Positions 3,836-48,360 are shown, counted from the stretch's first letter. The stretch: DNA of 64,000 nucleotides from Escherichia coli (GCF_029227855.1 NZ_CP074356.1), one strand, 5' to 3'. The notes: generated by a model from the sequence alone, not told the origin. Numbers and translations are program-made.

Positions 3836-4271
3836 GATACTGCTCCTTGGGATTAATCGTTTTCGTTTCGATACCCTGTAAAAACGACACCTCGGGAGCA
3901 AACTTAAAACCGCCGTTAAAATTTTTTCGCCACGTATTATCCGATGCCACTTTTAGCTAAAAAAAAACAGAGTTTAAATTCAGATAAAAAGATTATTAGC
4001 AATATCTGCCACATGGCCAGGTATCAAAATATGTCTTTATCAATTGCTTGATATAGTTAAGATTATCATCAATTACCGCGTTTTCTTATCAATGTACTGA
4101 TGCCAAAATTTACATTGCGTTGCAAATAGTACACATTTGGCTATTGTACCTGTCCTGTCATTTCGTTACATTTCCACGCTATATAGTGATTAAGAATAAT
4201 CTTATCACCATAAAATTATTAATTATCACGCAGAAAAATCATCTTCTCAGGGACGTATAAGACTGTGCTTT

Positions 4272-5165
4272 ATGCAAAGCACTATCAGGAAACATTTATC
4301 CCTTGCTAAGGTAAACTCAACTATGAGTATTATTATCAACAACTGGCGGATGGACCCGTCGCTTAATGCCTTAATACATTGCGAAACGGGTGAAACACGT
4401 CGTCTCGGCGAATACCATTTTATTTTGCTGGAAACATTAGCAAAAAATGCCGATGTGGTTTTATCGCGATCTTATTTATGTGCCGAAGTATGGAAGAACC
4501 GCATTGTCGGCGGTAACAGCCTGCCGACGGCGATCCACGCTCTGCGCGTTGCCATTGATGATGACGGCAAGCAACAGAACATTATTAAAACTATCCCGAA
4601 AAAAGGGTACCTGTGCAATAAAGAGTATGTGTCTTTGCCGGAGTCATCGCCTGCGGAAGCGCTGATTATTACCGACCAGATACAGGAAACAGTACCAGAA
4701 GAGATATCTTCTACAACACCGCCTGTGCCTGTTAGAAAAAAACATAAAGGACTGATGGGGTTAGCGTTGACCGCGGCTGTTATATTTATTGGCTCGACCG
4801 TGGGGTATTCACACTTGAAAAGTACACCTGACGCCCCGCAACTGGTAAAAGAGTCAATTAACAGTCCAAGAATAAAAATATTTCATCTTAGTTCTGGAAA
4901 AGAAAATAATTCCGCACCGTTACTGTCACAAACCCTCGCACCAGGAAAAGACAAACTCGATAATTTATTGTCAGCGCATAATATGACAATGACAACCTAT
5001 TATAAATATGTTCGTAACCGACTGGAGAGTGATATTGTTCTGCGCAACCAGTGCAATGGTAGCTGGCAATTAACCTTTAATGTGGATGAGTGGCAGAATA
5101 GCGATATTAATAGCGCGATGTATCAGAATTTAGAGAAGTTGTTAAATACTGTGCAGAAATGCTGA
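4272..5165 (+). CDS. ToxR/CadC-like membrane-anchored transcriptional regulator (winged-helix OmpR-type DNA-binding domain, one TM segment, periplasmic domain); possibly the Flag-2 lafZ
   Basis: ORF track; N-terminal region ...YLCAEVWKNRIVGGNSLPTAIHALRVAIDD... resembles trans_reg_C winged helix; hydrophobic stretch GLMGLALTAAVIFIGSTVGY; AT-rich gene and upstream region. The true start may be the ATG at 4323. Confidence 0.6.
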   Translation: MQSTIRKHLSLAKVNSTMSIIINNWRMDPSLNALIHCETGETRRLGEYHFILLETLAKNADVVLSRSYLCAEVWKNRIVGGNSLPTAIHALRVAIDDDGKQQNIIKTIPKKGYLCNKEYVSLPESSPAEALIITDQIQETVPEEISSTTPPVPVRKKHKGLMGLALTAAVIFIGSTVGYSHLKSTPDAPQLVKESINSPRIKIFHLSSGKENNSAPLLSQTLAPGKDKLDNLLSAHNMTMTTYYKYVRNRLESDIVLRNQCNGSWQLTFNVDEWQNSDINSAMYQNLEKLLNTVQKC

Positions 5166-5180
5166 CGAGTGCCAATATCA

Positions 5181-5213
5181 GCCGGATGCGACGCTAAAGG
5201 CGTCTTATCCGGC
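5181..5213. repeat. REP (repetitive extragenic palindromic) element
   Basis: gccggatgcgacgctaaaggcgtcttatccggc, close to the enterobacterial REP consensus; sits between convergent genes. Confidence 0.6.
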
Positions 5214-5219
5214 TGATAA

Positions 5220-6197
5220 TTACCCCAATAAATTCCTCACCGTCTGACTGGAAATTCGCGCCTGACCATTCACCGCCTGCAATAAAACTTGATAGTTATG
5301 ATTGGCGCTATCCAGCACGCCGCCGAGATTTTCCGACGCCTGCACGGCGCTTTCCGTTTGCGGGAAGCGCGACATGCCGTCGATCAACTGCCGCGCCTTT
5401 TCCTGCTGTACCGCCATCTGCACACGCTGCTGATTAATGCTTTCTAACGTCTGAGAAATCCCCGCTCCGCCCTGTTGCAGGCTTTGCACTAAGCGGTCCG
5501 CCTGCGACGGTTCGGCAAAGGTTTTTAGTGGCATAAACGCTGATTTATCACCATCGGTGCGCACGCTTAGGGTGCTTTCAATGTTGGGCCACTGTTTTTC
5601 AGTGGTGGAGAAACTTATACCATCGGCGTTTTGATGCATCTGCACGCCCACGCGGCGCAGGGCGTTGGTCAGCCGCGTCTGGTACTGCCCAGCGCTGTCA
5701 TCCTCAGACAGCATCACCGCCGAAAGCTGAGTCTGCCGCCCGTCAGAGACGCTGAACATGCGCGTTCCCGGCGTGGGATTGTGTACGAGATTCGCCAGAT
5801 CCGGCGAGTGAAAAGTCACCCGCGCTTCCCCCTGCAACACTGGCTGCAACTGGCGGTCCACCGCACCGCCGGAAAGCGCGGTGCGTTTGTCCAGCATCTG
5901 CATCAGCGCCGAACTCTGCGCCTGCCCGCCCTTACGCTGGCTATGACGATAATCGAGCAACTGCTGCTCCAGTTGCCCGAGATAGTGATCCGCCTGCTGC
6001 AACGTGGTGAGCTGGTCGTTAAGCTGCACGCTGTAACGCTGCGGGCGAGTGGTAATCAGCGGCGAGGCCGGATATTCACTCGCCGTCGCCGGGAGTTTTT
6101 GCCGCACCTCCTGAGTGGGCGCAACGGTTGACGACGATACCGCAACGCTATGCGCGCCGCCGGTGGCGAGTGACGAAGATGTAAATCCGACCTGCAT
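5220..6197 (-). CDS. hypothetical Flag-2 protein, 325 aa, with flagellar axial-protein-like C-terminus (possibly lafW)
   Basis: ORF track; C-terminus ...NHNYQVLLQAVNGQARISSQTVRNLLG resembles the C-terminal helix of flagellar export substrates; directly downstream of flgL in the same orientation. Confidence 0.4.
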   Translation of the reverse strand: MQVGFTSSSLATGGAHSVAVSSSTVAPTQEVRQKLPATASEYPASPLITTRPQRYSVQLNDQLTTLQQADHYLGQLEQQLLDYRHSQRKGGQAQSSALMQMLDKRTALSGGAVDRQLQPVLQGEARVTFHSPDLANLVHNPTPGTRMFSVSDGRQTQLSAVMLSEDDSAGQYQTRLTNALRRVGVQMHQNADGISFSTTEKQWPNIESTLSVRTDGDKSAFMPLKTFAEPSQADRLVQSLQQGGAGISQTLESINQQRVQMAVQQEKARQLIDGMSRFPQTESAVQASENLGGVLDSANHNYQVLLQAVNGQARISSQTVRNLLG

Positions 6198-6213
6198 ACT
6201 GTTCCTGAAAGAG

Positions 6214-7143
6214 TTAGAGAACGCTGAACAAATTCAACTCACTCACTTTCGAGTAAGTCTTGAGGGTAGCTTCCATTGCTACTTCCAGTCCGGTAAAGGT
6301 GATCGACGCCGGGCCGTAATCGAGATCCTGTAATGAACCAATCAGCTCATCATTAGAGGTAGAGATATCGGTCTGCGCATCGCTCAACATCGACATGGTG
6401 TTCTGCGTCTCGCCGAGCGACGCAATCGAGGCGTTGAGGTTATCCGAGGCGGTGTCCACCACATCAACGGCGTTCTGAATATCGCTCTGCACCTGCGGAT
6501 CGGCCGGGTCAACGTTTGGGTCTTGCAACTCCTGGGAGAGCGAATTGAGCGTGTTGAGCACATCTAAATTGCTGCCGAAGAAATCGCTCGCCGCCACGTT
6601 GGTATCCACTTCCACGCCGTTCGACACCGTGGTCTGGCGGTGGTCGCTGTTGCCCTGATAGCTGTAGCTATCGGTCACGCCGTCGCCGTCATCGTCCACC
6701 GCCACAATCGGCGGCTGATCGTTGATAGTGCCGCCAAACACGTAGTGCCCGTCTTCGTCCTGATAGTTCAGCGCCGCGACCATTGATTCGGTGAGCGACT
6801 CAATATCCTGCCCGAGACTTGCGAGCGAATCGGCGGTATTGGTGCCATTCGCCGCTTCCAGCAGGTCGTCGCGCACCGCCAGCAGGCTGTTGTTGACGCC
6901 ATCAAGGATTGATTCCTGCTGACTTAACCCCGCCGACGCGGAGTCGATATTGCTCTGATACTGCTCAATCGCCGACTGTTGGCGGTTCAACTGGGTGATG
7001 CGCGTGGCGGCGATCGGGTCATCCGACGGCTGCAAAATCTGCTTGCCGGTTGCCATCTGCTCGACCACATGCGCCAGATCGCCGGAGAGATTATTAAAAC
7101 TTTGCGTCATCGAGACGTAGGTTTGTTGGGTGGTTACTTGCAT
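6214..7143 (-). CDS. lfgL: hook-associated protein FlgL/HAP3 (Flag-2 LfgL)
   Basis: ORF track; start moved to the internal ATG (MQVTTQQTYVSM...) preceded by a GGGAG Shine-Dalgarno, 14 bp after the flgK stop. Confidence 0.8.
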   Translation of the reverse strand: MQVTTQQTYVSMTQSFNNLSGDLAHVVEQMATGKQILQPSDDPIAATRITQLNRQQSAIEQYQSNIDSASAGLSQQESILDGVNNSLLAVRDDLLEAANGTNTADSLASLGQDIESLTESMVAALNYQDEDGHYVFGGTINDQPPIVAVDDDGDGVTDSYSYQGNSDHRQTTVSNGVEVDTNVAASDFFGSNLDVLNTLNSLSQELQDPNVDPADPQVQSDIQNAVDVVDTASDNLNASIASLGETQNTMSMLSDAQTDISTSNDELIGSLQDLDYGPASITFTGLEVAMEATLKTYSKVSELNLFSVL

Positions 7144-7157
7144 TTTCGCGCTCCCGC

Positions 7158-8534
7158 TTAGCTGCACATTTCCAGCACCGAATCGAAAATCTCGGCCCCG
7201 GCGGAAATGACTTTCAGATTGGCTTCATAAATTTGTTGATAGGTGATCAGGTTAACCGCCTCTTCGTCCATGCTGACGCCGCTGACGCTGCTCTGCTGGT
7301 TTTGCGCTGCGGAATAGACATTGGACGCGGCATCGACTTCCGTCTGGTTTTGCTGGCTGTAAATGCCGATATTGCTGATGATTGACGAGCACGCCTGCCC
7401 GACCGTCACGCTGCCGAGGTTGGCTATTTCCAGCGGTTCGGTGGAGATATTGATCAGCGCCTGGAGGTTGTCGCTGTTGCCGCTTTCGTCCGGCGAACTG
7501 GAGAACGCCAGCTCATCGGCGGTGATATCCGGGTTAACGGTCAGCGGGCCATCGGCGTTGCTGGCGTCATAAATAAACAGCGGCTCGCCGGGGTTACCGT
7601 TGAGATCGTAGCCCTGCGCCAGCTGGTTGTTAACCGCATCGGCGAACTGCGACGCCATACTGTTGATGGTGTCGGTCAGCGGCGTCAGCACGTCGTTTTG
7701 ATAATCAAACAGTGCGCCTAATGAACCGCCGGTGTCGGTAGTCATCGTCGAGGTGGTGCCAGCGAAAGTCAGCGACATGGTCGGCGTGCCGTCGGCGTTG
7801 GTTTCCAGCTCGATGGTCGAGCTTTGCTGCCCGCTCACCAGCGGTTGACCGTTTTTCAGGGTAACGTTGTAGTTGCCCTGGTCGTCGATATTGACCTGCA
7901 CATCCATCATGCCGCTCAGTTCTTCCACCATCTGATCGCGGGCGTCGTACAGCGCGGAGGCGTTATCGCCGTTGGCTTCGGCCTGAGCGATTTGCTGGTT
8001 ATAGCTGGCGATGCCGCTGGTGAGCGTGTTGATTTGCGACACCATTGCCTGCTGCTGGCTGATGAGTTCCGTGCTTTGCGAGTCGATGTAATCCAGCGTG
8101 TTGTCGATACGCAGCGACAGCGCCCCGGCTTCGCTGATCACCTGCTCGCGCAGGGCGGAATCATCGGGGCTGGTGGTCGCTTCGTTAAGGGCGGCGAAGA
8201 AGTTATCGAACCCGCCGCTCAGGCTGCTGTTATCGTCGTTCAGTACCGCTTCCAGTTGCGTGAGATACCCCTGCTGGGTGCTGTAATAGCCGTAATCACT
8301 GGCGGCATACCACACCTGATTCACCTGATACTGGTTAGAGACGCGGCGAATGCTGTCGACCTGCACGCCGTTACCGGCGCTGTTCGGCGAACCACCGCTG
8401 GCGCCGATGGTGCTGATCTCCGCCACCTGGCGGGTGTAGCCCGTGGTCATGGCGTTGGCGGTGTTTTGCGCCGTGACGTTCAGCTCCACCTGCGCGGTTG
8501 ATGCGCCGCTGTAGCCGATGTTAATCATATCCAT
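7158..8534 (-). CDS. lfgK: hook-associated protein FlgK/HAP1 (Flag-2 LfgK)
   Basis: ORF track, 458 aa; axial-protein N-terminus (...GASTAQVELNVTAQNTANAMTTGY) and C-terminal heptads. Confidence 0.85.
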   Translation of the reverse strand: MDMINIGYSGASTAQVELNVTAQNTANAMTTGYTRQVAEISTIGASGGSPNSAGNGVQVDSIRRVSNQYQVNQVWYAASDYGYYSTQQGYLTQLEAVLNDDNSSLSGGFDNFFAALNEATTSPDDSALREQVISEAGALSLRIDNTLDYIDSQSTELISQQQAMVSQINTLTSGIASYNQQIAQAEANGDNASALYDARDQMVEELSGMMDVQVNIDDQGNYNVTLKNGQPLVSGQQSSTIELETNADGTPTMSLTFAGTTSTMTTDTGGSLGALFDYQNDVLTPLTDTINSMASQFADAVNNQLAQGYDLNGNPGEPLFIYDASNADGPLTVNPDITADELAFSSSPDESGNSDNLQALINISTEPLEIANLGSVTVGQACSSIISNIGIYSQQNQTEVDAASNVYSAAQNQQSSVSGVSMDEEAVNLITYQQIYEANLKVISAGAEIFDSVLEMCS

Positions 8535-8610
8535 GTTGGATCCTTACCGGTAAATCGTGCCGGTTAAAAGCGGCGTTAGGTTGGGGATTCTTAAGTGGGA
8601 GGTGGTGCCC

Positions 8611-8910
8611 TCATTTATGCTTCGGCGACAACTGCTTCACAATCATCGCCGCGATCCCAATCCCGTGCTGCTGCGCCAGGGTGTTACACAACTCATCGTC
8701 ATAAAACCCCTGCATCATGCGCGCCGAATCGCTGTTAAACGGGTTATCTTTTGAATCAAACAACTCGTTGGTTTTACGCATCTCTTTGAGCATATTGCGT
8801 AAAAAAATCGCCTCAAACTGTTCGGCGGCCTGCCTGATATCATTGGCCTGAACCTTCGGCCCCATTAACGCATCGCTGCCGTCAATCCCGCCGCTGCCGT
8901 TAACTTTCAT
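8611..8910 (-). CDS. lfgJ: FlgJ rod-binding domain only (Flag-2 LfgJ), 99 aa; no muramidase domain
   Basis: ORF track; ...FEAIFLRNMLKEMRKT...MMQGFYDDELCNTLAQQHGIGIAAMIVKQL matches the FlgJ N-terminal rod-binding domain. Confidence 0.7.
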   Translation of the reverse strand: MKVNGSGGIDGSDALMGPKVQANDIRQAAEQFEAIFLRNMLKEMRKTNELFDSKDNPFNSDSARMMQGFYDDELCNTLAQQHGIGIAAMIVKQLSPKHK

Positions 8911-16646: not shown

Positions 16647-16773
16647 CGCGAATACCTTCCCCCATCGCGGAAATGGATTTTCCGCCTGATTCACAATCCT
16701 TTGTTTTTGATTATAAAAATTCCCGGCACGCTTATTGCACATTCCGCAAAGTAATAAAGACTGGAAGCCACCT

Positions 16774-17703
16774 ATGAGTTTTATTGAATGTTACGAACCG
16801 GAATACGTGCGCAATTTTATGACGCAATATCCCGATTCGCCTTTGTACATCCGCAAGGTGTGGAAAAACGAGATTCGCCAGAGCCTGATGCTGACAGAGC
16901 CAGAAAGCTGCGAAGCGGTGCTCAACGATGCCAGGGCCTTTGATTTACAGCTCACCTACCGCCCGGCGGAAGATAATGCCGCAGAACTCTCCGCGCGCGA
17001 TGCGATAGTAAACCAGGTCATTTTGAGCACCCTTACGCTCCCCGATTTACCCCCGGAGCTTTCACTGTACGCCGTCGGGATTTTGCTCTCCCGCGCCAGC
17101 AAAATGCCGGGCAGAGACGGAGATATTCTTGCCCGCTTGACGACGCTGCCACAGGCGCTGGCCGCTCATGCACAAAAAGGCACGCTACAGGCACAGTTCG
17201 CCCAGTTGCCGCCTGTACCACAGCTGGCGCGCCAACTGGTGACGCTGCTCGGCAGTTGTGCGTTTGACTGGTCGATTCTGCCGGAAAGCCCGCGCAAAAC
17301 TTCCCTGCCGTTGCAGATGCCTTTGCTGGCGCTACATGACGCCAACAGCGAAGCCCTGTTGCAACAGCAGCTTCAGGCACAGTGGCAAACCACCTGGCAA
17401 CAGCATTTTGCCACCGCGCCCTGGATGATGTGTAACTGGCTGATTTACCGCGTTTACCATGAGGTGATTGGACAGGCAGACGGAGCAGATTATTGCCCGC
17501 TGGTGTGCGATTTTTATTTTATCCGCACGTTAATCAGTTTATGGACGCTGGATGGTTCTCCGCTGCGGAAGGAGGATATTTTCGCCCTTTTTGCGGTGTT
17601 TGAACGCTGGCGAGAGAGTGAAAATGCGCTGTTTATTCGCCAGCAAATTCAGTCGTTATGTGCCGCCGACCCGCTGCTTTCAGCGTTTTCGCTGCTGACG
17701 TGA
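16774..17703 (+). CDS. hypothetical protein, about 309 aa, in the flgA-flgM-flgN operon context
   Basis: ORF track (16735-17703); start placed at the ATG at 16774 (MSFIECYEPEY...) with a GGAAG Shine-Dalgarno; I recognise no family. Confidence 0.5.
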   Translation: MSFIECYEPEYVRNFMTQYPDSPLYIRKVWKNEIRQSLMLTEPESCEAVLNDARAFDLQLTYRPAEDNAAELSARDAIVNQVILSTLTLPDLPPELSLYAVGILLSRASKMPGRDGDILARLTTLPQALAAHAQKGTLQAQFAQLPPVPQLARQLVTLLGSCAFDWSILPESPRKTSLPLQMPLLALHDANSEALLQQQLQAQWQTTWQQHFATAPWMMCNWLIYRVYHEVIGQADGADYCPLVCDFYFIRTLISLWTLDGSPLRKEDIFALFAVFERWRESENALFIRQQIQSLCAADPLLSAFSLLT

Positions 17704-17717
17704 AGCCGCTCTCGATC

Positions 17718-17753
17718 GGTCCCCTCGCCCCTTCGGGGAGAGGGTGAGGGGCA
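17718..17753. repeat. GC-rich imperfect palindromic intergenic repeat, copy A
   Basis: ggtcccctcgccccttcggggagagggtgaggggca; its reverse complement aligns closely with the copy at 27433-27474. Confidence 0.6.
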
Positions 17754-17809
17754 AAGCACGCACAGCCCTCCTTACCCATCAAATTAACCCCTTAACTCAC
17801 CTAAACACC

Positions 17810-20281
17810 ATGCCAACACCAACCCTCATCAAAACACTCGCCACTCACCGCGAAAAACCGTTCGTCAGCGTCGTCACGCCCACATGGAACCGTAGCGCAT
17901 TCCTGCCGTACCTGCTCTATATGTACCGCTATCAGGATTACCCGGCAGACCGCCGCGAACTGGTCATCCTCGACGACTCGCCGCAAAGCCATCAACACAT
18001 CATCGACCGCCTGACCAATGGCACACCGGAAGCCTTTAACATCCGCTATATTCATCACCCGGAAAAACTGCCACTGGGCAAAAAACGCAACATGCTCAAC
18101 GAACTGGCGAGCGGCGAATACATCCTCTGCATGGACGATGACGACTACTACCCGGCAGATAAAATCTCTTACGCCATCGCCATGATGCAAAAACACCGGG
18201 CGCTCATCTCCGGTTCCGACCAGATCCCCATCTGGTACAGCCACATCAATCGCATCTTCCAAAGCCGCAGCTTTGGCTCACATAACATCCTCAACGGCAC
18301 CTTTTGCTATCACCGTAACTACCTGAAAAAGCACCGTTACGACGATGATTGTAATTTAGGCGAAGAGAAAAGTTTCACCAACAATTTCAGCGTTAACCCG
18401 CTACAACTGCCCGGCGAGCGCACGATTCTGTGTATCTCGCACAGTCACAACACCTTTGATAAAGATTTTATTCTCGGGGCTAGCACGCCAGTAAACGCGG
18501 CGCTTACGGATATCGTCCGCGATCCGCTGCTGCGCAATGCTTATCTGAGTCTGCATAACGCCACTCATCACCAGGCGATCGATCAGGTCGTACTGATCAA
18601 TCTGGATAAACGCCCGGATCGCTTACAGCAGATCCGTGAAGAACTCACATTGCTGTATATTCCGCCTGAGAAGATCACCCGCCTTGCCGCCAGTGAAAAT
18701 GAAAACGGTCAACGGGGTCGCCGCCAGTCACACTTGCAGGCGCTGCGCCTGGCGCAACAGCACGGCTGGCAAAACTACCTGCTGCTGGAAGATGACGCAG
18801 TTATTCTCAAGCAGGAGAAACATATTCAGGTACTGAACACGCTGCTCGCGAGCCTGGCGAAAATTCCCTGGCAGGTGATGATCCTTGGCGGCGAAATTTC
18901 GCAGGGAACGATGCTAAAAAGTTTGCCGGGGCTGGTGCACGCGCGGGACTGCCGCAAAGTGTGCGCTTATCTGGTGAACAGTCGCTACTACCCGCAACTG
19001 GCGCAGCAGATGAGCCACAATGAACACTCGCTGGAAGACGGCTGGCAGCCGCTGCTACGCGCCGACAAATGGCTGGCCTGTTACCCGAGCCTTAGTTATC
19101 AGCGACCGGGCTTTAGTGATATCGAGAAAAAAGTGACCGACAACATTGCTCACTATTTCAATAAGTTACCCGTTATCACAAAGCCATCCGCATTACCCAT
19201 CGCCGACACCATCGGCTTTTTTATGGAAACCTCCTTCCACTACGCGCTCTACCGCCCAATCATCACTGCTCTACAGGTGCAGGGGCAGAGCTGCACGCTG
19301 GTGATCAATGACCGCGTGTTTAAACCGTTTCTTGATGAGATGCTGGAAACACTGAAAAACATCGACGATCCGCAGCTTAAAGGAATGCGCTTATCTGAAA
19401 TGCAGGCACACGGTCAGCGGGTGAAATGCCTGGTCAGCCCCTACCACACGCCCGCGCTCAATGGCCTGGCAGCGGTGAACGTTCGCGCCATGTACGGCTT
19501 AGCCAAAGAGACGTGGAACCACGCCGACTGGAACCGTTTTTATCAACGCATTTTGTGTTACAGCCACTACAGCCAGCGGGCGCTGGCGCATTTCGGCAAT
19601 GCAAAAGCAGTCGGCAACCCGCGCTTCGACGCCTGGCATAACGGCACGTTTGCCCGCACTCTGCCGGAAAATATTCAACCCGATTCCCGTAAACCTACGG
19701 TGCTCTATGCCCCCACGTTTGGCGCATTAAGCTCCCTGCCCCACTGGGCAGAAAAATTAGGCCGCTTAAGTGGCAATGTGAATCTGATTTGCAAACTGCA
19801 CCACGGCACCTGCTCGCGCCCGGAAGAAGCGGCATCGCTGGCCCTGGCGCGCAGGCATTTAAAACAGCGCACCGACTCCGCCCGCCACACGCTGGCGCTG
19901 CTGGCAAAGGCCGATTACGTGCTGACCGATAACAGCGGCTTTATTTTCGATGCTATTCACGTTGATAAGCGGGTGATCCTGCTCGACTTTCCGGGCATGG
20001 CAGCGTTGCTCGACGGTGAGAAAAGTTACTCCACGCCGGAGAGCGCCGATCAGCAAATCCGCGAAATATTGCCGGTGGCTCATGATATGGCAGAGTTGCG
20101 TTACTTGTTGTCAGAGGCGTTTGACTGGGGGGCGGTGCAGGCGCGGCTTACGAAGATTCGCCATCACTATTGCGATGCGTTTATGGATGGCAAAGCGGGA
20201 GAACGGGCGGCGATGGTGATTGTGGAGGCGCTGGCGGACAAGGAATCGTCAGGGATATGTCGATATAATTCGATTTTTTAA
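17810..20281 (+). CDS. multidomain glycosyltransferase, about 823 aa: N-terminal GT2-like, central GT25-like, C-terminal CDP-glycerol glycerophosphotransferase (TagB/TagF-like)
   Basis: ORF track (17744-20281); start set at ATG 17810 (MPTPTLIK...). N-terminus VSVVTPTWNRSAFLP...LDDSP...CMDDDDYY (DXD motif); middle VVLINLDKRPDRLQQI...LLLEDDAVI; C-terminus TVLYAPTFG...KLHHGT...VLTDNSGFIFDAIHVDKRVI. Domain calls by eye, unverified. Confidence 0.7.
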   Translation: MPTPTLIKTLATHREKPFVSVVTPTWNRSAFLPYLLYMYRYQDYPADRRELVILDDSPQSHQHIIDRLTNGTPEAFNIRYIHHPEKLPLGKKRNMLNELASGEYILCMDDDDYYPADKISYAIAMMQKHRALISGSDQIPIWYSHINRIFQSRSFGSHNILNGTFCYHRNYLKKHRYDDDCNLGEEKSFTNNFSVNPLQLPGERTILCISHSHNTFDKDFILGASTPVNAALTDIVRDPLLRNAYLSLHNATHHQAIDQVVLINLDKRPDRLQQIREELTLLYIPPEKITRLAASENENGQRGRRQSHLQALRLAQQHGWQNYLLLEDDAVILKQEKHIQVLNTLLASLAKIPWQVMILGGEISQGTMLKSLPGLVHARDCRKVCAYLVNSRYYPQLAQQMSHNEHSLEDGWQPLLRADKWLACYPSLSYQRPGFSDIEKKVTDNIAHYFNKLPVITKPSALPIADTIGFFMETSFHYALYRPIITALQVQGQSCTLVINDRVFKPFLDEMLETLKNIDDPQLKGMRLSEMQAHGQRVKCLVSPYHTPALNGLAAVNVRAMYGLAKETWNHADWNRFYQRILCYSHYSQRALAHFGNAKAVGNPRFDAWHNGTFARTLPENIQPDSRKPTVLYAPTFGALSSLPHWAEKLGRLSGNVNLICKLHHGTCSRPEEAASLALARRHLKQRTDSARHTLALLAKADYVLTDNSGFIFDAIHVDKRVILLDFPGMAALLDGEKSYSTPESADQQIREILPVAHDMAELRYLLSEAFDWGAVQARLTKIRHHYCDAFMDGKAGERAAMVIVEALADKESSGICRYNSIF

Positions 20282-20359: not shown

Positions 20360-20410
20360 AACATAGCCAAACGGCAGACGGCATCATCTTCTCTCACCGC
20401 GGGAATTAAA

Positions 20411-20815
20411 TCAGTAGGTGGCTGATTTACCCCTAATCACCTCAATGATCCCCGTCGTCGATACCGATGGCGTACGGGGAAAATAGACCACCTCACAGAC
20501 ACACGAGAAATCGTCAAACTTCCCCGCCCAGTCATCGCCCATCACCAAAATATCCGCACCGTACCCCCGCAAATACTCCGCTTTCTGCTCCAGCGATTCC
20601 TCCAGAAATACGCCCTCCACGCACGCCAGCCCGGCGATAATCGCCATGCGGTCATCCTGATGGTAAACCGGTGCCCTGCCCTTTTTGGCGATGTTCAAGG
20701 CATCGGACGATACGCCGACCAGCAACCGTTCGCCCAGCGTGCGGGCGCGTTGTAAAAGGCGCAGATGACCGACGTGAAACACATCAAAGGTGCCGAAGGT
20801 GATGACCGTTTTCAT
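20411..20815 (-). CDS. glycerol-3-phosphate cytidylyltransferase (TagD-like), 134 aa
   Basis: ORF track; MKTVITFGTFDVFHVGHLRLL... (HxGH motif) and ...MGDDWAGKF...CEVVYFPRT..STTGIIE closely resemble TagD-type cytidylyltransferases; last gene of the fliE-fliJ operon. Confidence 0.8.
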   Translation of the reverse strand: MKTVITFGTFDVFHVGHLRLLQRARTLGERLLVGVSSDALNIAKKGRAPVYHQDDRMAIIAGLACVEGVFLEESLEQKAEYLRGYGADILVMGDDWAGKFDDFSCVCEVVYFPRTPSVSTTGIIEVIRGKSATY

Positions 20816-20817
20816 CG

Positions 20818-21252
20818 CTACTCCGCTAATTTATGCCGTAGCCAGCACTGAACGGCAATGTCATCCACCGCTTTTTGCGCTTTCGCCGTGGCGCTTTCCT
20901 GCTGCTCGCGGCGTTTGTCGTCCAGCGTCAGGACCACCACTTTCTCTTCGCACGCCGCCGCCGTCAGGTTTTTCTGCATTCGCGTGGCTTTGATGTTAGC
21001 CAGCGTTTTTTCCTGTTCCTGCCAGGCGATCACCTTGCGCAGGGTGCCTTTGTAGCCGCTGACGTTTTTCAGTGATTCCACCGACGCCGCCGCGCCCGCA
21101 GACGTTTTCTCTACCAGGTAGCCTAACGCCTTGATATTGTTGTCATAGCCCGCGCAGATCTGTTTTTGCTTTGCCAGCTCGACAGTTTTGTCTTTGACCG
21201 ATTTATCCCGCAGGCGCTGCAACTGCGCCAGGGTGTCGATGATTTGTCGCAT
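20818..21252 (-). CDS. lfiJ: FliJ-like export apparatus protein (Flag-2 LfiJ)
   Basis: ORF track, 144 aa coiled-coil protein downstream of fliI. Confidence 0.65.
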   Translation of the reverse strand: MRQIIDTLAQLQRLRDKSVKDKTVELAKQKQICAGYDNNIKALGYLVEKTSAGAAASVESLKNVSGYKGTLRKVIAWQEQEKTLANIKATRMQKNLTAAACEEKVVVLTLDDKRREQQESATAKAQKAVDDIAVQCWLRHKLAE

Positions 21253-29893: not shown

Positions 29894-30676
29894 ATGCGCA
29901 CAAGCGACGTTACGCAACTGATGGATCTGGCGCTGGGGCTGTGGTTTCCCTTCGTGCGCATTATGGCGTTTCTGCGCTATGTGCCGGTGCTGGATAACAG
30001 CGCCCTGACCGTGCGCGTGCGGATTATTTTGTCGCTGGCGCTGGCAATCATCATCACGCCGTTGATCCCCCATCCCATTCCCCACGATCTGCTTTCACTC
30101 AACAGCCTGATCCTGACGGTGGAGCAAATTTTATGGGGCATGTTGTTCGGGCTGATGTTTCAGTTTCTGTTTCTCGCGCTACAACTGGCCGGACAAATTC
30201 TCTCGTTCAATATGGGGATGAGCATGGCGGTGATGAACGACCCGAGCAGCGGCGCATCGACCACCGTGCTGGCGGAGTTAATCAACGTCTATGCGATCCT
30301 GCTGTTTTTTGCCATGGACGGGCATCTGCTGCTGGTAAGCGTGCTGTATAAGGGCTTCACCTACTGGCCGATTGGTAACGCGCTGCATCCGCAAACCCTG
30401 CGCACCATCGCGCTGGCCTTTAGCTGGGTGCTGGCGTCCGCATCACTGCTGGCGCTGCCGACCACCTTCATCATGCTGATTGTGCAGGGCTGCTTTGGCC
30501 TGCTCAACCGCATCGCGCCGCCGCTGAACCTCTTTTCGCTCGGCTTTCCCATCAACATGCTGGCGGGGCTGGTTTGCTTTGCCACCCTGCTCTACAACCT
30601 GCCGGATCACTATCTGCATCTGGCGAATTTTGTGTTGCAGCAACTCGACGCGCTGAAAGGTCACTATGGCGGATAG
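29894..30676 (+). CDS. lfiR: export apparatus protein FliR (Flag-2 LfiR)
   Basis: ORF track (29843-30676); start at ATG 29894 immediately after the fliQ stop; polytopic membrane protein. Confidence 0.85.
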   Translation: MRTSDVTQLMDLALGLWFPFVRIMAFLRYVPVLDNSALTVRVRIILSLALAIIITPLIPHPIPHDLLSLNSLILTVEQILWGMLFGLMFQFLFLALQLAGQILSFNMGMSMAVMNDPSSGASTTVLAELINVYAILLFFAMDGHLLLVSVLYKGFTYWPIGNALHPQTLRTIALAFSWVLASASLLALPTTFIMLIVQGCFGLLNRIAPPLNLFSLGFPINMLAGLVCFATLLYNLPDHYLHLANFVLQQLDALKGHYGG

Positions 30677-31805
30677 CAGCAGCGAAGAAAAAACAGAGAA
30701 ACCCTCGGCGCAAAAGCTGCGTAAAGCGCGTGAAGAGGGGCAACTGCCGCGCTCGAAGGATATGGGGCTGGCAGCGAGCCTGTTTGCAGCGTTTGTGGTG
30801 ATCTCCAGCAGTTTTCCGTGGTATGCCGATTTTGTGCGCGAGAGTTTTATCAGCGTGCATCAGTACGCGCAGGAGATTAATAACCCGCAGGTGATCGGTC
30901 AGTTTCTGCGCCACCACCTGTTAATTCTCGGCAAGTTTATCCTTACGTTGCTGCCGATGCCCGCCGCCGCGCTGCTCTCTTCGCTGGTGCCGGGCGGCTG
31001 GCTGTTTCTGCCGAAAAAAATCCTCCCGGATTTCAGCAAAATTAGCCCGTTAAAAGGCATTGGGCGTCTGTTTTCCAGTGAACATCTGGCGGAAACGGGA
31101 AAGATGACGGTGAAGTCTGCCGTGGTGCTGGTGATGCTGTGGGTAAGCCTGCGCAATAACTTTGCCGCCTTTCTCGGCCTGCAGGCGCTGCCGTTCAAAC
31201 TGGCGATGAATGACGGTTTGTCGCTCTACGCCAGCGTGATGCGCAACTTTGTCATCCTGTTTATTTTCTTTGCGCTTCTCGACGTGCCGCTGGCGAAAGC
31301 CCTGTTCACCAAAGGGCTGAAGATGACCAAACAAGAACTGAAAGAAGAGTACAAAAATCAGGAAGGCAAGCCGGAAGTGAAGGCGCGCGTGCGGCGGCTG
31401 CAACGGCAGCTGGCGATGGGGCAAATTCGCAAAGTGGTGCCAAAGGCCAACGTGGTGATCACCAACCCGACCCACTACGCCGTGGCGTTGCAGTATGACC
31501 AGTCGCGTGCCGCCGCGCCGTTTGTGGTGGCGAAAGGCACCGATGAAATCGCCCTCTATATTCGCCAGGTCGCTGCTGAAAGTCAGGTGGAAGTGGTCGA
31601 GTTCCCGCGGCTGGCGCGCTCGGTTTACTATACCACTCAGGTGAATCAGCAAATTCCTTTTCAGCTTTACCGGGCTATCGCCCACGTTCTGACCTACGTC
31701 CTGCAAATGAAACACTGGCGCGAGGGCGCACAGCCGCGCCCGGCCCTGAACAGACATATTTCCATTCCCAAAGAGGTGCTTAAACTGGATGGCGAAAACA
31801 ACTAA
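30666..31805 (+). CDS. lfhB: export apparatus protein FlhB (Flag-2 LfhB)
   Basis: ORF track, 379 aa; conserved NPTH autocleavage motif (…VVITNPTHYAVAL…). Confidence 0.9.
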   Translation: MADSSSEEKTEKPSAQKLRKAREEGQLPRSKDMGLAASLFAAFVVISSSFPWYADFVRESFISVHQYAQEINNPQVIGQFLRHHLLILGKFILTLLPMPAAALLSSLVPGGWLFLPKKILPDFSKISPLKGIGRLFSSEHLAETGKMTVKSAVVLVMLWVSLRNNFAAFLGLQALPFKLAMNDGLSLYASVMRNFVILFIFFALLDVPLAKALFTKGLKMTKQELKEEYKNQEGKPEVKARVRRLQRQLAMGQIRKVVPKANVVITNPTHYAVALQYDQSRAAAPFVVAKGTDEIALYIRQVAAESQVEVVEFPRLARSVYYTTQVNQQIPFQLYRAIAHVLTYVLQMKHWREGAQPRPALNRHISIPKEVLKLDGENN

Positions 31806-33918: not shown

Positions 33919-34314
33919 ATGACGTCAGGGATTGATAAGATGATGAAAACGCGTTTATTAATATCTCAAGCATCGAACATTATCACCATTAAAGGTCAAC
34001 CAGCCGCAGTGACATTTGAAGCCGATATCAACGCATTTCGCGGCAAATTTCTCAATGTAAATGGTTATTGCGACTTTGTAGCGACAAGCATTGAGGCGTT
34101 ATACCGGGAAGGTGAAAGTGCGCTGGATGAGTGGATGGCGGATTGTGAAGAGGACGGCATTGCCCCTTTTCGTGAAGAAGAGCAAAAACGCCTGACGCTT
34201 CGTGTTCCTCATCACATCGATTCACGACTGACCATTGTCGCCAGACAACATTCCATTTCAAAAAATCAGCTCATTGTTGATGTATTAGAACGTGAGTTTT
34301 CATCCCAGATGTAA
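33919..34314 (+). CDS. HicB-like/ribbon-helix-helix small protein (orphan antitoxin-like), 131 aa
   Basis: ORF track; C-terminal ...RLTLRVPHHIDSRLTIVARQHSISKNQLIVDVLERE resembles RHH (CopG/Arc) DNA-binding motifs fused to a HicB-like fold; no HicA-like partner seen nearby. Confidence 0.45.
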   Translation: MTSGIDKMMKTRLLISQASNIITIKGQPAAVTFEADINAFRGKFLNVNGYCDFVATSIEALYREGESALDEWMADCEEDGIAPFREEEQKRLTLRVPHHIDSRLTIVARQHSISKNQLIVDVLEREFSSQM

Positions 34315-34319
34315 ACAGG

Positions 34320-34348
34320 TCGGATGCCGTGTGGCATCCGATTTTTTT
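34320..34348 (+). terminator. Rho-independent terminator
   Basis: Hairpin tcggatgcc-gtgt-ggcatccga followed by ttttttt directly after the 131-aa ORF stop. Confidence 0.8.
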
Positions 34349-43483: not shown

Positions 43484-43861
43484 TCACTCCTGACCAAAAT
43501 CTTTCCACACTAATGCATGAGACTTTGATTTATCACCCAAAAATTTACTTACATCTTTCCAAAGTAAAGAATTGCTATCGGTCGCAGTGACTATTGCCTC
43601 TATAAGCCCTGTAGCTACAACTGTGGCCAATTCATCATCAATCGAGACCATACCATCTTCGACATGTTTAAATATTTTTTCTCTTTCAATATCACCCATT
43701 TCATAAAAATTTTTTACAATCGTTTTTCCAATCTGAGAGAACAACATAACCACCGGTGGAGTTTCTGGATGCCAGTATTCATTAGCTAATGAGACTGTCT
43801 CAGACAAAACAGTGGAAAACGATGCCATTTTTTCTATATAATTAGCAATATATTGGTTCAT
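43484..43861 (-). CDS. putative immunity protein for the Rhs C-terminal toxin, 125 aa
   Basis: ORF track; small AT-rich ORF whose ATG overlaps the rhs stop codon; classic effector-immunity arrangement; family unknown. Confidence 0.5.
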   Translation of the reverse strand: MNQYIANYIEKMASFSTVLSETVSLANEYWHPETPPVVMLFSQIGKTIVKNFYEMGDIEREKIFKHVEDGMVSIDDELATVVATGLIEAIVTATDSNSLLWKDVSKFLGDKSKSHALVWKDFGQE

Positions 43862-46800
43862 TACTTGCCTCCCAAAGCATTCTGTAAATCCTGAAGAACG
43901 TTTTCTGCTGCTGCTCGATCCCCTGGAGATGCTGTTGGATTCTTATCCAACCAATCCTGTAAAGCCCTTGTATAATCCTGTGCTTTCAATACATGTCCTC
44001 TACCACCAACTTTTTCACCTGTGGCCAATTCATAACGAACAGCATCTGCTGTGCTTCCACTTCCTACTTTTGCATTTGGCCGATAAAGATCGTCTATAAT
44101 ATTTTTCAAATTTGAATCTGTAACGTCAGGTTTTCCCATCTTCTGTCGCAATTCATCTTTATACCGTTCATGCTGCATACGATCTCTTGCGCTATTCTCA
44201 TCTTCTGGTCCCCATCCTCCCGGGCTTCCCGTACTGCCACCACCCAGGCAGTTCTTCTCTTCCTCCGTCAAATCCTTCCCGACATTTGGATTCTCTTTTG
44301 ATGAATCATCATTTCCAAACACGCTGGAAAAAGCACCATAGGGATCTCGCCAGAATTCCATTTGACTTTGTGCATTTAATAATTCGGCTTCACCCTGCAT
44401 CTCCATACTTTTCTCAATCGCGTCCCCAACAGCCTCGCGATTGTTGTATATTATTATACCACCACCAATAACCACCGTACCGACTGCCGCACCGACTAAC
44501 ATCCCCGGAGGGCCTCCTACCGAACCGATCTCTGTACCTACTTCAGAACCAGTTCCCATGGCAGTTAATGCTCCTGCGCCCAACGCCGCACTTAATCCCA
44601 GCGGATCCAGCCGTTGCACCGGGTTCAGTGGATACGCATACAGGTTCCATCCCCCCTTCAGCCCAATCGGATCCTGGGTGATATACCTCCCCTGTAGCGG
44701 GTCATAGTACCGGTGACGGTTGTAGTACAGCCCCGACTCCTCATCATACTGCTGCCCCGGCAGACGGAGTGACTGTTGAAGGTGCTGCGTGCTTTCCTCT
44801 CCCAGCAGGTTTCCCCACTCGTCATACTCCCCGCGCCACGCCGTTTCCCCTTCCGGGCTGATAAGCGCCTGCGGCAGCCCACGGTGGTCACAGTGGTAAA
44901 GATGAAGTTTCCTCTCCGGGATGTATTCCGCCTCCAGTTGCGCCGCCATCTGTTCCGCCGTCAACCCACACTGTGCAAGCCACTGCTGGCTTTCTTCACT
45001 CACGCTGCCCTGCCGCAGTTCCCGCTCCAGCCTCCCCAGCATCACCGCCAGCTCCGCCGGTAGCGTCACACCCGTGTCCTCCTGCAACACCTCCGCCAGG
45101 CTACGGTGCCGCGCCTTCGCCTGTTCGCCATTCTCTGTTTCGATTCTCAGGAGCGGCGTGAAGCTCCCCGGCTGGTATACCGTCTGGATACGCGTGGTGT
45201 CGGTCTGTACCGTCGTCAGCCTGTCGCCGTCCCACCCGTACCAGGTCACCTCCGGTTTACGCGACAGCGACATCCACCCCGTCAGGTCACGCTCCCGCCG
45301 CCACACCCGTTTTCCCGTCCGGCGGCCCAGCGGGTCATAGAGGTAGCGGCTCTCCACCTGTGGCTCGCCGTGCTGTATCCGCGTGTAGAACACCAGGCGG
45401 TGCTGGCTGTCGTAATGGTAGTGGTGCGTCCGCTCGTCGTGCATCCGTATCACCCCTTCCGGGATACGGTCCGTCTTCTCCGCCAGCCTGCCGTATTCAT
45501 CGTAGCGGTAGACATAGTGCGCATCTTCCGTGATGCGGTTATCCGGCCACGCCGTGAGGGTGCTGTCCGGGTGCAGTTCCGGGTCCGGCAGCCGGTTTCC
45601 TGCCGGGTCCGTCGCATACGGGATATCAATGTCCAGGTTCGCTGCCGTGGTGTGGACGCCCGTCAGCCTTCCCGTGTCGCTGTAACGGTACTCCCGGCTC
45701 TCCTGCGGGCCGCTGATGCGAATTAGCTGTCCGTTGTCGTTCCAGTCGTAGTCACGGTCAAGCTGCGGAAGGTTCAGGTGCCTGCTCCGGAGCTGGCCGC
45801 TGGTATTCCAGGCGGTGGCAAGCTCATATGCCTCCCCGCCGAAGCTGCGGGCCGTCTCACGGTGCAGCCGGTCCCGCGTGTACTCGACCAGTGGCGTACC
45901 ACCCAGCTTCATTCCCGCAAGATAACCGCTGCCATACGTCAGCCACTCCACCGGCGGCAGACCGTCCAGCTCCTGACGGGTCGCCAGCCCCTGTTCGCTG
46001 TACGCGTGCTTCGTCTCATGCTCCCACAGCATCTCCCCCGTCTCCGGGTTCTCCACCGTCTGCCGTTCGCCCGTCAGGCGGCCTTTATCGTCGTGGCCGT
46101 AGTGGACCGCCACACGGTGGCCTTCGCTGATATGGCTGATTTCTGTCAGCCAGCCGTGCTCATCATACTGCCACTGCTCCGCCGGGTCGCCGTTCACCGT
46201 CCGGTGCGTGATGCGGTCCGACGCATCGTAATGCCAGAGGGTGATAAGTCCCTCGTCTTCACTGTGGACAAGCTGCCCTGTGGCGCTGTACCGGTAACGC
46301 TGCGTCCTGCCGTCAAAGCCGCGCTGCTCCGTCAGCCTGTCCACCGGGTCATACCGGAACGTGGACTGGCTGCCGTTCTCGTTGGTCAGCACGGTGATGC
46401 GCCCGGCAGCGTCATACCCCATGCTGCGCGTCAGACCGCCTTCCGTCACACTCACCGGACGCCCGCGTTTATCATATTCGATGGTGCTGCGTTTACCGTC
46501 CGGTGATATCGTTGCTGTCAGGTCGCCTGCGGCGCTGTACTCATAACGGGTTTCACGCCCCTGCGCATCCTTCTGACTGACCAGTTGGCCTCGCGGGTTA
46601 TAACTGCTGTAAGTGCTGATGCCTTCCTCCCGGTGAACGGCGATTTGTTGACCGTACCGGTCATACTCATACCGCGTCATGTACCCCGAGCAGTCCGTGA
46701 AGGCCCGAAGCTGACCGTACCGGTTTCGCGTTATTCTCCGCGTCACCCCGATTCCGTCTTCCACCGCGCCGGGCAGGCTACTGCGGGGGGAGTCATAAAA

Positions 46801-48360
46801 CCAGCGCGTAATGTTACCGTTGCGCGAGATCTCTTCTGCCAGTCGGCCCTGACGGTCATATTTCCGGCTGCTGCGTAAACCATCCGGATATGTCACTGAA
46901 GTCAGTTGCAACTGGCTGTTGTAACCATACCGTACCGTCCTGCCGTCCGGCAGTATCACTGAAGTCAGCTTTCCAGACGCCATATGCAGCCGGTACTCCG
47001 TCCGCCGTCCTGCCGCATCCGTCTGCGCCTTCAGCCTCCCCGCCTCATCATACTCGCTGCGGGTGATGCTCCCGTCGGCATGCTCCTTCTTCACCACACG
47101 CTTCAGGCCACCCCCGCCTTCCGTGTACAGCACCTCCCGCCGGTTCAGGCTGTCCGTGATGGTCACACGGTCCTGCCCGTACTCAAAGCGGTAGTCCAGC
47201 CCCTCCGGGTTGACCTGCTCCGTCACCCGCCCGGTATCATCATACCGGTAGCGGCTCTCCGGCCTCCCTGCATAATGGTGCGCCACCATCCGCCCGGCGT
47301 GCTCCGCATCATAAGTAAACCCGCGCACCTGCGTCCCGCTGCGGTCATACACCGCCCGCAGTTCTCCGCTGGCCGTGTACGTATAGCGCGCCAGCGGCGC
47401 AGTCGGCTGTTCATCCGGGTATGCCGGGTCGTGTGTCAGCCACACCGCCTCCAGCCGGATACCGTTATCGGCACCGTATTCTGTACCGGCGGGCAGCGTA
47501 TCGGGGAAAACCTGAGAAGAGGAAACAGAACGGGGACCGGCTGGAGAAGATAAAGAAGAGGCGCGCTGTTTACGGAAGGCTTCCGCCCGCTGCGCCTGCG
47601 TGCTCAGCGCCAGGTGAAAACAGCGGCCCGCGCCGTCCGTCACCCCCGTCACCGCACCCGCCACGTCACCCTCTGCCGCCCGGTGGAAGGCCAGCGTCCG
47701 CCCGAAGCCGTCCACCACGCCCGTCAGCACCCGGTATGCGGGCGGCTCCGGCGGCAGCACCTCGTCCGCCCCCGGCACCCGCTCCGGCCAGCCGAGCACC
47801 AGCCACTGCCCGGTTGTGCTGGCAGCCATCATATAGATGTGTGGACTCAGACGGACCGCTTCCGGCAACGCCCGCCAGAGCCGCGCAAGCGGGTGGCCTT
47901 TGTGCTGTTTCAGCACCCCGCACCGCGCCAGCCAGAACGACTCGCTGCGGCTGTAGCTTATCTCGCCGGGAAACAGGGGTTCAAAGTGAATGCTCCTGCC
48001 GCCGCTGTCGTTGAGTATCAGGCCTTCATCGCGTATCTGTAAGCGGATATCGAAGGGGGCTTTCCAGCCGGGACCAAACACCCCCACCGGCGCGGGCGTC
48101 CTGGTCCGGTAGCTGCTGTAGGCGCGGAAAAGAACAAACGGCAGCGGGCCGGACAGTGCCAGGTCGGTTTCAGCAGGCAGCACCTTCGCTCCCAGCAGCG
48201 GGTTTACCGGATTGCCATATTTCGGCGTGGCTTCCCCTGTGGGACACACCGAGCAGGCCACACCGGTTGGCGCACCTATCAGCACCCCTGCTGAACCCTG
48301 CACAATATCCAGTCCCTTGCGGGTCATGTCACCCTGCCGCGCCGCCGGTTTTCCACCCAT
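43861..48360 (-). CDS. rhs: PAAR-domain Rhs (YD-repeat) polymorphic toxin, 1499 aa, with variable C-terminal toxin domain
   Basis: ORF track; N-terminal PAAR motif ([11 protein letters not shown]...), long YD-repeat core, DPLGL core-end motif at 44593-44607 followed by a ~243-aa C-terminal domain of lower GC. Confidence 0.9.

Follow-up and report, generated by a model that had tools for sequence, protein, structure and literature searches.

The junction between the flagellar hook and filament is regarded as a fixed adaptor of two proteins, FlgK and FlgL, and the Flag-2 locus of Escherichia coli raises the question of what a third gene, placed directly behind these two, might contribute. We address this question in a 64,000-nucleotide stretch of E. 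coli DNA (GCF_029227855.1 NZ_CP074356.1; hereafter the window), in which an open reading frame (ORF) of 325 amino acids with an ATG start occupies positions 5220–6197 of the minus strand and encodes a protein ending in ...VLLQAVNGQARISSQTVRNLLG. We identify this ORF as lafW, with which the lfgBCDEFGHIJKL-lafW operon of the E. coli Flag-2 (lateral-type) flagellar locus ends. Its product is predicted to have a flagellin-like build, and the reading that we favor, which falls a little short of probable, is that LafW is a Flag-2 export substrate acting at the hook-filament junction or at the base of the filament.

lafW Closes the lfg Operon of the Flag-2 Locus

The ORF coincides with a gene of the RefSeq record:

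5220–6197, minus strand: lafW coding sequence (325 amino acids plus stop codon), with a RefSeq coding sequence at the same place and E. coli homologues that are 94–95% identical

The region around it (window positions 4000–8600) is 100% identical to the chromosome of E. coli JNEC-KY178, and 1279 of 5426 complete E. coli genomes carry this 4.6-kb region. RefSeq labels the ORF "flagellar hook-associated protein" (WP_471724224.1), a label derived from where the gene lies, with neither homology nor experiment behind it; in other strains it appears as "hypothetical protein" or, wrongly, as "FlhF." At 95% identity, the encoded protein matches the main E. coli cluster, whose name is "flagellar hook-associated protein"; an entry called "lateral flagellar putative hook associated protein" matches it at 94%. 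E-values against the E. coli hook-associated-protein entries are 1e-190 to 1e-142, and one homologue, from Yersinia rohdei, is named lafW. Gene order in the window runs lfgK, lfgL, lafW, the convergent lafZ, and lafA-B-C-D, with the remainder of the Flag-2 locus downstream, a layout that agrees with the published locus (PMC6993521). The published Flag-2 order is lfgNMABCDEFGHIJKL followed by lafWZABCDEFSTU, with LafW placed between lfgL and lafZ; neither lafW nor lafZ has a counterpart in Flag-1, and the mean amino acid identity of LafW across Enterobacterales is only 44.6% (PMC6993521, PMC7526173).

An initial annotation of the window, made from its sequence, had described this ORF as a putative secreted axial protein of no family that it could name. 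The ORF itself is real, with an ATG start, its own ribosome-binding site, and evidence of purifying selection (see below). Searches of Pfam, NCBIfam, and PDB sequences likewise return no match for it, but the literature does name the gene: the designation of LafW as a "putative hook-associated protein" goes back to Ren et al. (2005), according to the account of that study relayed by PMC6993521 and PMC7526173. Since the ORF is LafW, the interpretation offered by the initial annotation was already published together with the gene name in 2005; LafW is a named but uncharacterized gene, and its hook association is a published hypothesis, here rediscovered. The gene is the one known as lafW in the Flag-2 locus of E. 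coli 042 (Ren et al., 2005; De Maayer et al., 2020), at the same position between lfgL and lafZ and with no essential difference; the window allele is full length, at 325 amino acids, while some E. coli alleles are truncated at 214–263 amino acids.

The LafW Family Is Linked to flgKL across β- and γ-Proteobacteria

The initial annotation had also supposed that the protein is specific to this system. A word-indexed homologue search with LafW finds Enterobacterales only, and a search with LfgL finds only close relatives. An exhaustive HMMER search with a 28-sequence profile, however, recovers 256 representatives at E ≤ 1e-3 and 154 at E ≤ 1e-10, each representing a 50%-identity cluster and nearly all 310–380 amino acids long. 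Members come from Pseudomonas (alcaligenes and sp. HR96), Trinickia mobilis (Burkholderiaceae), and Paludibacterium and Vogesella (Chromobacteriaceae), as well as from Rosenbergiella, Tatumella, Pantoea, Enterobacter, Regiella, and Mangrovibacter. The family is thus wider than Flag-2, extending over β- and γ-proteobacteria, and almost all of its members outside Enterobacterales are annotated as hypothetical proteins. A scan of one genome per species with a degenerate DNA pattern, which reaches only the RY(N/S)VQLN.Q.T subgroup of the family, yields a further view of 78 loci, almost all from Enterobacterales and including Yersinia pestis, Budvicia, Pragia, Regiella, and Fukatsuia.

In the window, the lfgL stop codon (TAA, 6216–6214) lies 16 nucleotides before the lafW ATG (6197–6195) on the same strand, as expected from the initial claim that the ORF follows flgK-flgL in one operon. 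The same position is kept in all seven distant loci that we compared, where the LafW gene comes directly after flgK-flgL on the same strand and closes a flgD-E-F-G-H-I-J-K-L run. Unrelated genes follow the LafW homologue in five of the seven, so the linkage is to flgKL and not to lafA. This wide distribution with strict flgKL linkage is new. A conserved third gene co-transcribed with flgKL throughout a class of flagellar systems would point to an extra component of the junction or filament base, or to a new late-export checkpoint.

LafW Has a Predicted Flagellin-like Build with a Conserved Outer Domain

An AlphaFold2 model of full-length LafW, computed from a 28-sequence alignment, has a mean predicted local distance difference test (pLDDT) score of 74.6 and divides the protein into four parts:

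6048–6197, minus strand: residues 1–50, rich in Ser, Thr, Ala, and Pro and predicted to be disordered (pLDDT 31–42, no secondary structure); a candidate flagellar export signal

5871–6044, minus strand: residues 52–109, predicted N-terminal half of a D1-like helical bundle, containing the conserved motif RYSVQLNDQLTTLQQAD.YL

5505–5870, minus strand: residues 110–231, predicted inserted α/β domain, the most conserved part of the family (pLDDT ∼90)

5223–5504, minus strand: residues 232–325, C-terminal helices that close the bundle in the AlphaFold2 model, with the end motif TV(R)nLL

The N-terminal half of the bundle comprises one long helix (residues 52–88) and two short ones (95–103 and 105–109), and the C-terminal half comprises helices 232–241, 247–276, 282–309, and 317–324, with the last 55 residues at pLDDT 62–74. 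The 50 residues preceding the bundle are of low complexity and vary in length and sequence across the family. When the central domain and its flanks (residues 92–246, 38 sequences) are modeled alone, the prediction reaches a pLDDT of 93.4 and a predicted template modeling (TM) score of 0.84.

Comparison of the full-length model with the PDB by Foldseek places flagellins in all 11 best matches (E 4.8e-7 to 3e-4), with probabilities of 0.99–1.00 over 280–434 alignment columns but TM-scores of only 0.21–0.29. These are led by Pseudomonas aeruginosa FliC (4.8e-7) and include Vibrio cholerae FlaA, FlaB, and FlaD and the flagellins of Sphingomonas and Stenotrophomonas; FliD, FlgL, FlgK, and the injectisome tip proteins IpaD and SipD follow. 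The inserted domain is closest to flagellin D2 and to D2-D3 of FliD, with modest scores. This enrichment of flagellar outer domains among the fold matches of the central domain agrees with weak Pfam matches within a 118-sequence alignment of the family, in which Flagellin_IN is found in six members (best E-value 0.0015) and FliD_N in four (0.3). Considered as a model, LafW is thus predicted to be built like a flagellin: helices from both ends make up a D1-like bundle, and an outer domain is inserted between them.

This predicted topology, a terminal D1-like bundle interrupted by an inserted domain, would be shared with both FlgL (hook-associated protein 3, HAP3) and flagellin. LafW is also close in size to the adjacent LfgL (309 amino acids), and, like FlgL and flagellin, it lacks cysteine and has a hydrophobic C-terminal end. 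It differs from FlgL and flagellin in that no sequence homology to them is detectable and in that its first 50 residues are predicted to be disordered in place of a D0 helix. FliD, the filament cap (HAP2), resembles LafW through the D2-D3 fold matches and through the weak Flagellin_IN and FliD_N matches in a few members, but the scores are modest, LafW has no FliD_N or FliD_C homology, and the locus has its own FliD, LafB (1400–2716).

The pattern of conservation within LafW differs from that of flagellins. Of the 13 positions conserved in at least 90% of the 118 sequences, 10 lie in or just before the inserted domain (R105 to G216), whereas the helical parts of the family diverge beyond recognition. 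The outer domains of flagellins are their variable part, but in LafW the inserted domain shows the highest conservation, which suggests that it binds a fixed partner. Also new, like the distribution of the family, is this combination: a build predicted to be flagellin-like, an outer domain that is conserved, and no predicted N-terminal D0.

The fold also bears on two other functions. The first is suggested by gene names: a 349-amino-acid hypothetical protein encoded between flgL(L) and lafA in Plesiomonas has been named "maf-5," although classical Maf domains are reportedly absent from it and its similarity to Maf-5 is described as minimal, and the Aeromonas gene at the same position is also called maf-5 (PMC4481668). 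The Plesiomonas protein may be a LafW homologue. That LafW is a Maf-like flagellin-modification factor would fit these names, as well as the presence of flagellin-modification genes elsewhere in this Flag-2 locus, but is extremely unlikely. The 118 family members give no Maf domain (PF01973, MAF_flag10) or glycosyltransferase match in Pfam or NCBIfam, no Maf-type structure occurs among the fold matches, and a nucleotide-sugar transferase fold would not fit within the ∼120 residues of the central domain.

The second is a cytoplasmic role in the assembly or regulation of the late lateral-flagellar proteins: LafW might, for instance, serve as a co-chaperone, or it might regulate LfgK, LfgL, or LafA at the translational or post-translational level. 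Genes that follow flgL in other bacteria are regulators, namely FliW/CsrA in Bacillus and FlaF/FlbT in α-proteobacteria, and LafW lacks recognizable axial-protein sequence domains. However, the predicted topology, in which helices flank an inserted β-rich domain, and the central domain itself point to the extracellular outer domains of flagellin and FliD. In addition, the absence of cysteine and the long disordered N terminus are typical of exported substrates, and a protein of 325 amino acids is much larger than known flagellar chaperones. We consider a cytoplasmic role unlikely.

The Predicted C-Terminal Helix Weakly Resembles Those of FlgL and FlgE

The initial annotation had likened the C terminus to the terminal helix of flagellar export substrates. 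We slid the last 28 profile columns of the axial families, ungapped, along the LafW profile over ∼310 offsets. For FlgL and FlgE, the best offset is the extreme C terminus of LafW in all three LafW alignments used here (28, 34, and 118 sequences; z 2.6–4.2), a placement reached by 1.5–4% of 3506 control windows, forward and reversed. Within the predicted C-terminal helices (282–309 and 317–324, pLDDT 62–74), V320 and L324 are nearly invariant across the family. The resemblance is real but weak, and consists of an amphipathic terminal helix with a hydrophobic ...V..LL end, as in axial proteins. This end of LafW is the best end-anchored match to the C termini of FlgL and FlgE. A flagellin match at the C terminus of LafW, seen with a four-sequence profile, vanished with 31 sequences, and no Flagellin_C or Flg_bbr_C match is found in any of the 118 members at E ≤ 10. 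An apparent N-terminal flagellin match was likewise limited to the four-sequence profile. In the same way, the proposal that the N terminus (MQVGLNTSTLS) and the segment PASPLITTR mirror flagellin and FlgL was dropped, as the corresponding matches of small profiles, at offsets 0 and 29, were gone with larger ones.

Other features of the protein are consistent with passage through the flagellar export apparatus. LafW has no membrane segment (maximum 19-residue hydropathy 0.78), its sequence contains no signal-peptide core and no cysteine, and it is rich in Gln, Ser, Thr, Ala, and Leu, a composition resembling that of flagellar export substrates. Together with the predicted disordered N terminus, these features would fit a flagellar export substrate.

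A Candidate Export Substrate at the Hook-Filament Junction

We infer the export, location, and role of LafW from these features as follows. Synthesis of LafW would go along with that of LfgK and LfgL, the two junction proteins. The type III export apparatus of Flag-2 would recognize LafW by its disordered N terminus, and possibly by its C-terminal helix, and would export it as a late substrate. Outside the cell, LafW would act at the hook's distal end, serving either as an accessory or adaptor component of the junction or filament base or as an assembly factor. Given the lack of a predicted N-terminal D0 helix and an inserted domain that is the most conserved part of the protein, LafW is likelier to be a low-copy adaptor on a conserved partner than a polymerizing subunit.

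A more specific form of this proposal is that LafW adds a third protein to the hook-filament junction or filament base in the lateral-type flagella of many β- and γ-proteobacteria, with a flagellin fold and a D0-less N terminus, docking by its conserved outer domain. We regard this as possible, though on balance doubtful. If true, the canonical two-protein junction of FlgK and FlgL would not be universal. The LafW family could in any case be defined as a domain family.

Several observations weigh against a place for LafW among the axial and junction proteins, and the first group comes from sequence comparison. Pfam and NCBIfam searches with the window LafW give no match, and among the 118 members there is no match to Flagellin_N (PF00669), Flagellin_C (PF00700), Flg_bbr_C, FliD_C, or Maf at E ≤ 10. 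PDB sequences searched with a single LafW sequence and two profiles return only noise. We further compared the three LafW alignments by hhalign with alignments of FlgL, flagellin, FlgK, FliD, and FlgE from the fetched loci, in local, global, and low-mact modes, with larger FlgL (77 sequences) and flagellin (31 sequences) profiles, and with helix-only, N-only, and C-only LafW profiles. LafW scores P 0.01–0.8 against these families, no better than reversed-sequence controls. It stays at the level of the controls when the larger profiles of 77 FlgL and 31 flagellin sequences are used, and also when its central domain is cut out. The positive controls, FlgL against flagellin (3e-18) and FlgK against FlgE (2.5e-6), are readily found. 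Because reversed controls score equally high, sequence homology of LafW to axial proteins cannot be claimed, and the profile comparison with FlgK, FlgL, and flagellin proposed with the initial annotation thus came out negative. That no sequence homology is detectable by these comparisons behind the "hook-associated" label is also new.

The remaining points on this side come from the model, the literature, and the state of the locus. To our knowledge, every known flagellar axial protein has an N-terminal D0 helix, and AlphaFold predicts no such helix with heptad repeats for residues 1–50 of LafW. The C-terminal helices are of moderate confidence only (pLDDT 62–74). Of the axial-like terminal helices looked for in structure prediction, the C-terminal ones are thus predicted at that confidence and the N-terminal one is not predicted. 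The literature that we searched contains no secretion, localization, or mutant data for LafW. Truncated lafW alleles are common in E. coli, and for several strains of this species Flag-2 is described in the literature as cryptic or not expressed. The proposal of an axial or junction component is supported in part, with the flgKL-linked position, the export-like features, and the Foldseek matches to flagellins on its side and the absence of detectable sequence homology and of a predicted N-terminal D0 set against it.

The missing N-terminal helix has a different meaning if LafW is exported but not structural, being either a secreted flagellin-like protein or an export-coupled regulator. In one example of the latter, the C-terminal helix of LafW could occupy the chaperone LfgN or LafC (FliS-type), and its export could report completion of the hook. 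The chaperones FliS and FlgN bind the C-terminal helix region of their substrates, which is where the FlgL/FlgE-like terminus of LafW sits, but chaperone binding by LafW is putative. The export-substrate-like features serve this explanation as well as the one that we favor, and insertion into the axial tube is made less likely by the missing N-terminal D0 helix. De Maayer et al. also raise Flag-2 as a secretion system. On the other side, the strong conservation of the inserted domain across β- and γ-proteobacteria fits a fixed flagellar partner better than a host-directed effector, and strict co-transcription with flgKL suggests amounts matched to those of the junction proteins. We therefore rate an exported, non-structural LafW as rather unlikely.

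Campylobacter jejuni FlaC, described in PMC5466977 as a non-filament flagellin secreted through the flagellum, illustrates such a protein. It is a precedent for LafW as a flagellin-fold protein that takes the flagellar export route without forming a filament. FlaC is recognizable as a flagellin by sequence and is not known to have outer domains; LafW would be the reverse, with a conserved outer domain and helical regions that are unrecognizable.

lafW Is under Purifying Selection, with Truncated Alleles in E. coli

In comparisons of the window with other Escherichia and close relatives, over unsaturated synonymous divergence (dS 0.2–0.5), the ratio of non-synonymous to synonymous substitution rates (dN/dS) is 0.09–0.12 for lafW, compared with 0.03–0.06 for lfgL and 0.02–0.06 for lfgK. 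A ratio of ∼0.1 indicates purifying selection, though 2–4 times more relaxed than on the two upstream genes. The intact 325-amino-acid cluster dominates in E. coli, with 4363 member sequences. Truncated forms of 214–263 amino acids make up the clusters P0011, P0013, P0015, P0017, and P0046, with tens to hundreds of sequences each; these suggest recurrent decay of lafW in part of E. coli, although some may be fragments from contig ends.

Decay of this kind would be expected if lafW in E. coli belonged to a cryptic locus and were now a functionless relic. In strain EC958 of sequence type 131 (ST131), expression of Flag-2 could not be shown, the locus has been called non-functional in some E. coli, and both the truncated clusters and the 2- to 4-fold faster non-synonymous evolution of lafW relative to lfgL and lfgK point in this direction. 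The window allele, however, is full length, the dN/dS of ∼0.1 among Escherichia and close relatives reflects purifying selection, and the main intact cluster holds thousands of sequences. Moreover, the Flag-2 genes checked in the window, lfhB included, are intact, and the LafW family is conserved far outside E. coli. A functionless remnant is accordingly very unlikely.

A broken Flag-2 export gate was considered and rejected. The nearest RefSeq record, NZ_AP045174.1, annotates Flag-2 flhB as frameshifted (1139 nucleotides), but the Flag-2 flhB (lfhB) of the window is an intact ORF of 379 amino acids (30666–31805). Against window positions 4000–8600, NZ_AP045174.1 also shows a length difference of one base despite a reported identity of 100.0%. 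These discrepancies are probably homopolymer errors in that assembly, or reflect a different isolate.

Neighboring Genes and Signals

The immediate surroundings of lafW contain the following features:

6202–6206, minus strand: AGGAA ribosome-binding site read from the sequence, 4 nucleotides upstream of the lafW ATG and within the 16-nucleotide lfgL-lafW gap

6214–7143, minus strand: lfgL (lateral FlgL, HAP3), immediately upstream of lafW in the same operon (TIGR02550, 1.7e-57; Flagellin_N; 309 amino acids in RefSeq)

7158–8534, minus strand: lfgK (lateral FlgK, HAP1; TIGR02492, 5.5e-105; FlgK_D1)

4272–5165, plus strand: lafZ, a ToxR/CadC-like regulator gene convergent with lafW (Pfam Trans_reg_C, 1.5e-13, an OmpR-type DNA-binding domain; weak CadC match)

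5178–5216, no strand assigned: REP-like palindrome of 39 nucleotides (TCAGCCGGATAAGACGCC...GCGTCGCATCCGGCTGA), read from the sequence, which fills most of the 54-nucleotide gap between the convergent lafW and lafZ stop codons

The start of lfgL is taken as 7143, with an alternative ORF start at 7167. The same-strand genes upstream of lafW encode FlgF, FlgG, FlgH, FlgI, FlgJ, FlgK, and FlgL in a lateral-type operon, and beyond the convergent lafZ lie genes for the lateral flagellin LafA (NF033376, 2.7e-200), FliD, and FliS and a small FliT-like ORF.

The palindrome between lafW and lafZ is probably a stem-loop at the end of the operon; it has no T-run and was for this reason missed by a simple terminator scan. 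That scan, with a simple promoter scan, gave nothing useful near lafW, and no match to a sigma-28 consensus promoter of the type TAAA-N15-GCCGATAA occurs in the window. The 76-nucleotide gap before lfgK (8535–8610, minus strand) contains TTAAGAAT-N12-GCCGCTTT, which is loosely like a sigma-28-type promoter (TAAAGTTT-N11-GCCGATAA). Judged by this motif, the candidate promoter could give lfgK-lfgL-lafW a late promoter of their own.

RefSeq places the lafZ start at ∼4323. The Trans_reg_C domain of LafZ covers residues 42–114, and a hydrophobic stretch lies near residue 170; LafZ is described as a transmembrane regulator in the literature on the Flag-2 locus. The gene lies in a stretch of lower guanine-cytosine (GC) content (47.5% versus ∼57%). 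In a distant metagenomic locus (L006, 9401–10144), the LafW homologue is also followed by a similar convergent Trans_reg_C gene. The pair lafWZ has been called a "putative toxin/antitoxin system" in a paper on ST131 (PMC4637896). The evidence here does not support this assignment: LafW has no family match, LafZ is a Trans_reg_C regulator of the OmpR/ToxR/CadC type, and the two genes are convergent and not co-transcribed.

Lateral FlgJ (8611–8910, minus strand) is only 99 amino acids long and consists of the rod-binding domain, lacking the muramidase part. Among the distant loci, FlgJ proteins with only the rod-binding domain measure 104–175 amino acids, and the longest FlgJ, which has an SLT domain, reaches 380 (L002). 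Because FlgJ domain content varies in this way among the distant loci, the presence of LafW does not track a missing hydrolase.

Other Features of the Window

Cargo genes lie between lfgN and lfiJ (16735–20281, plus strand, and ∼20400–20830, minus strand). They encode a lysine-N-methylase (LafV/FliB-like), a glycosyltransferase of 828–845 amino acids, and a small protein of the flavin adenine dinucleotide (FAD) synthase family, and correspond to the "variable region 1" flagellin-modification set described for Flag-2. At the edge of Flag-2, directly after lfhA, is a gene for a HicB-family antitoxin (∼33960–34320, plus strand), and the RefSeq record annotates no HicA partner beside it.

Beyond the housekeeping genes that flank Flag-2, the stretch from ∼42100 to 64000 begins with remnants of ISAs1 transposases and a gene for an Rhs core protein of 1499 amino acids (43861–48360). 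These are followed by VgrG (48436–50577), Hcp, and a type VI secretion cluster (tssB, C, E, F, G, tagH, tssJ, K, and further genes). The GC content is 40% at 42–44 kb and rises to as much as 64% within the Rhs gene.

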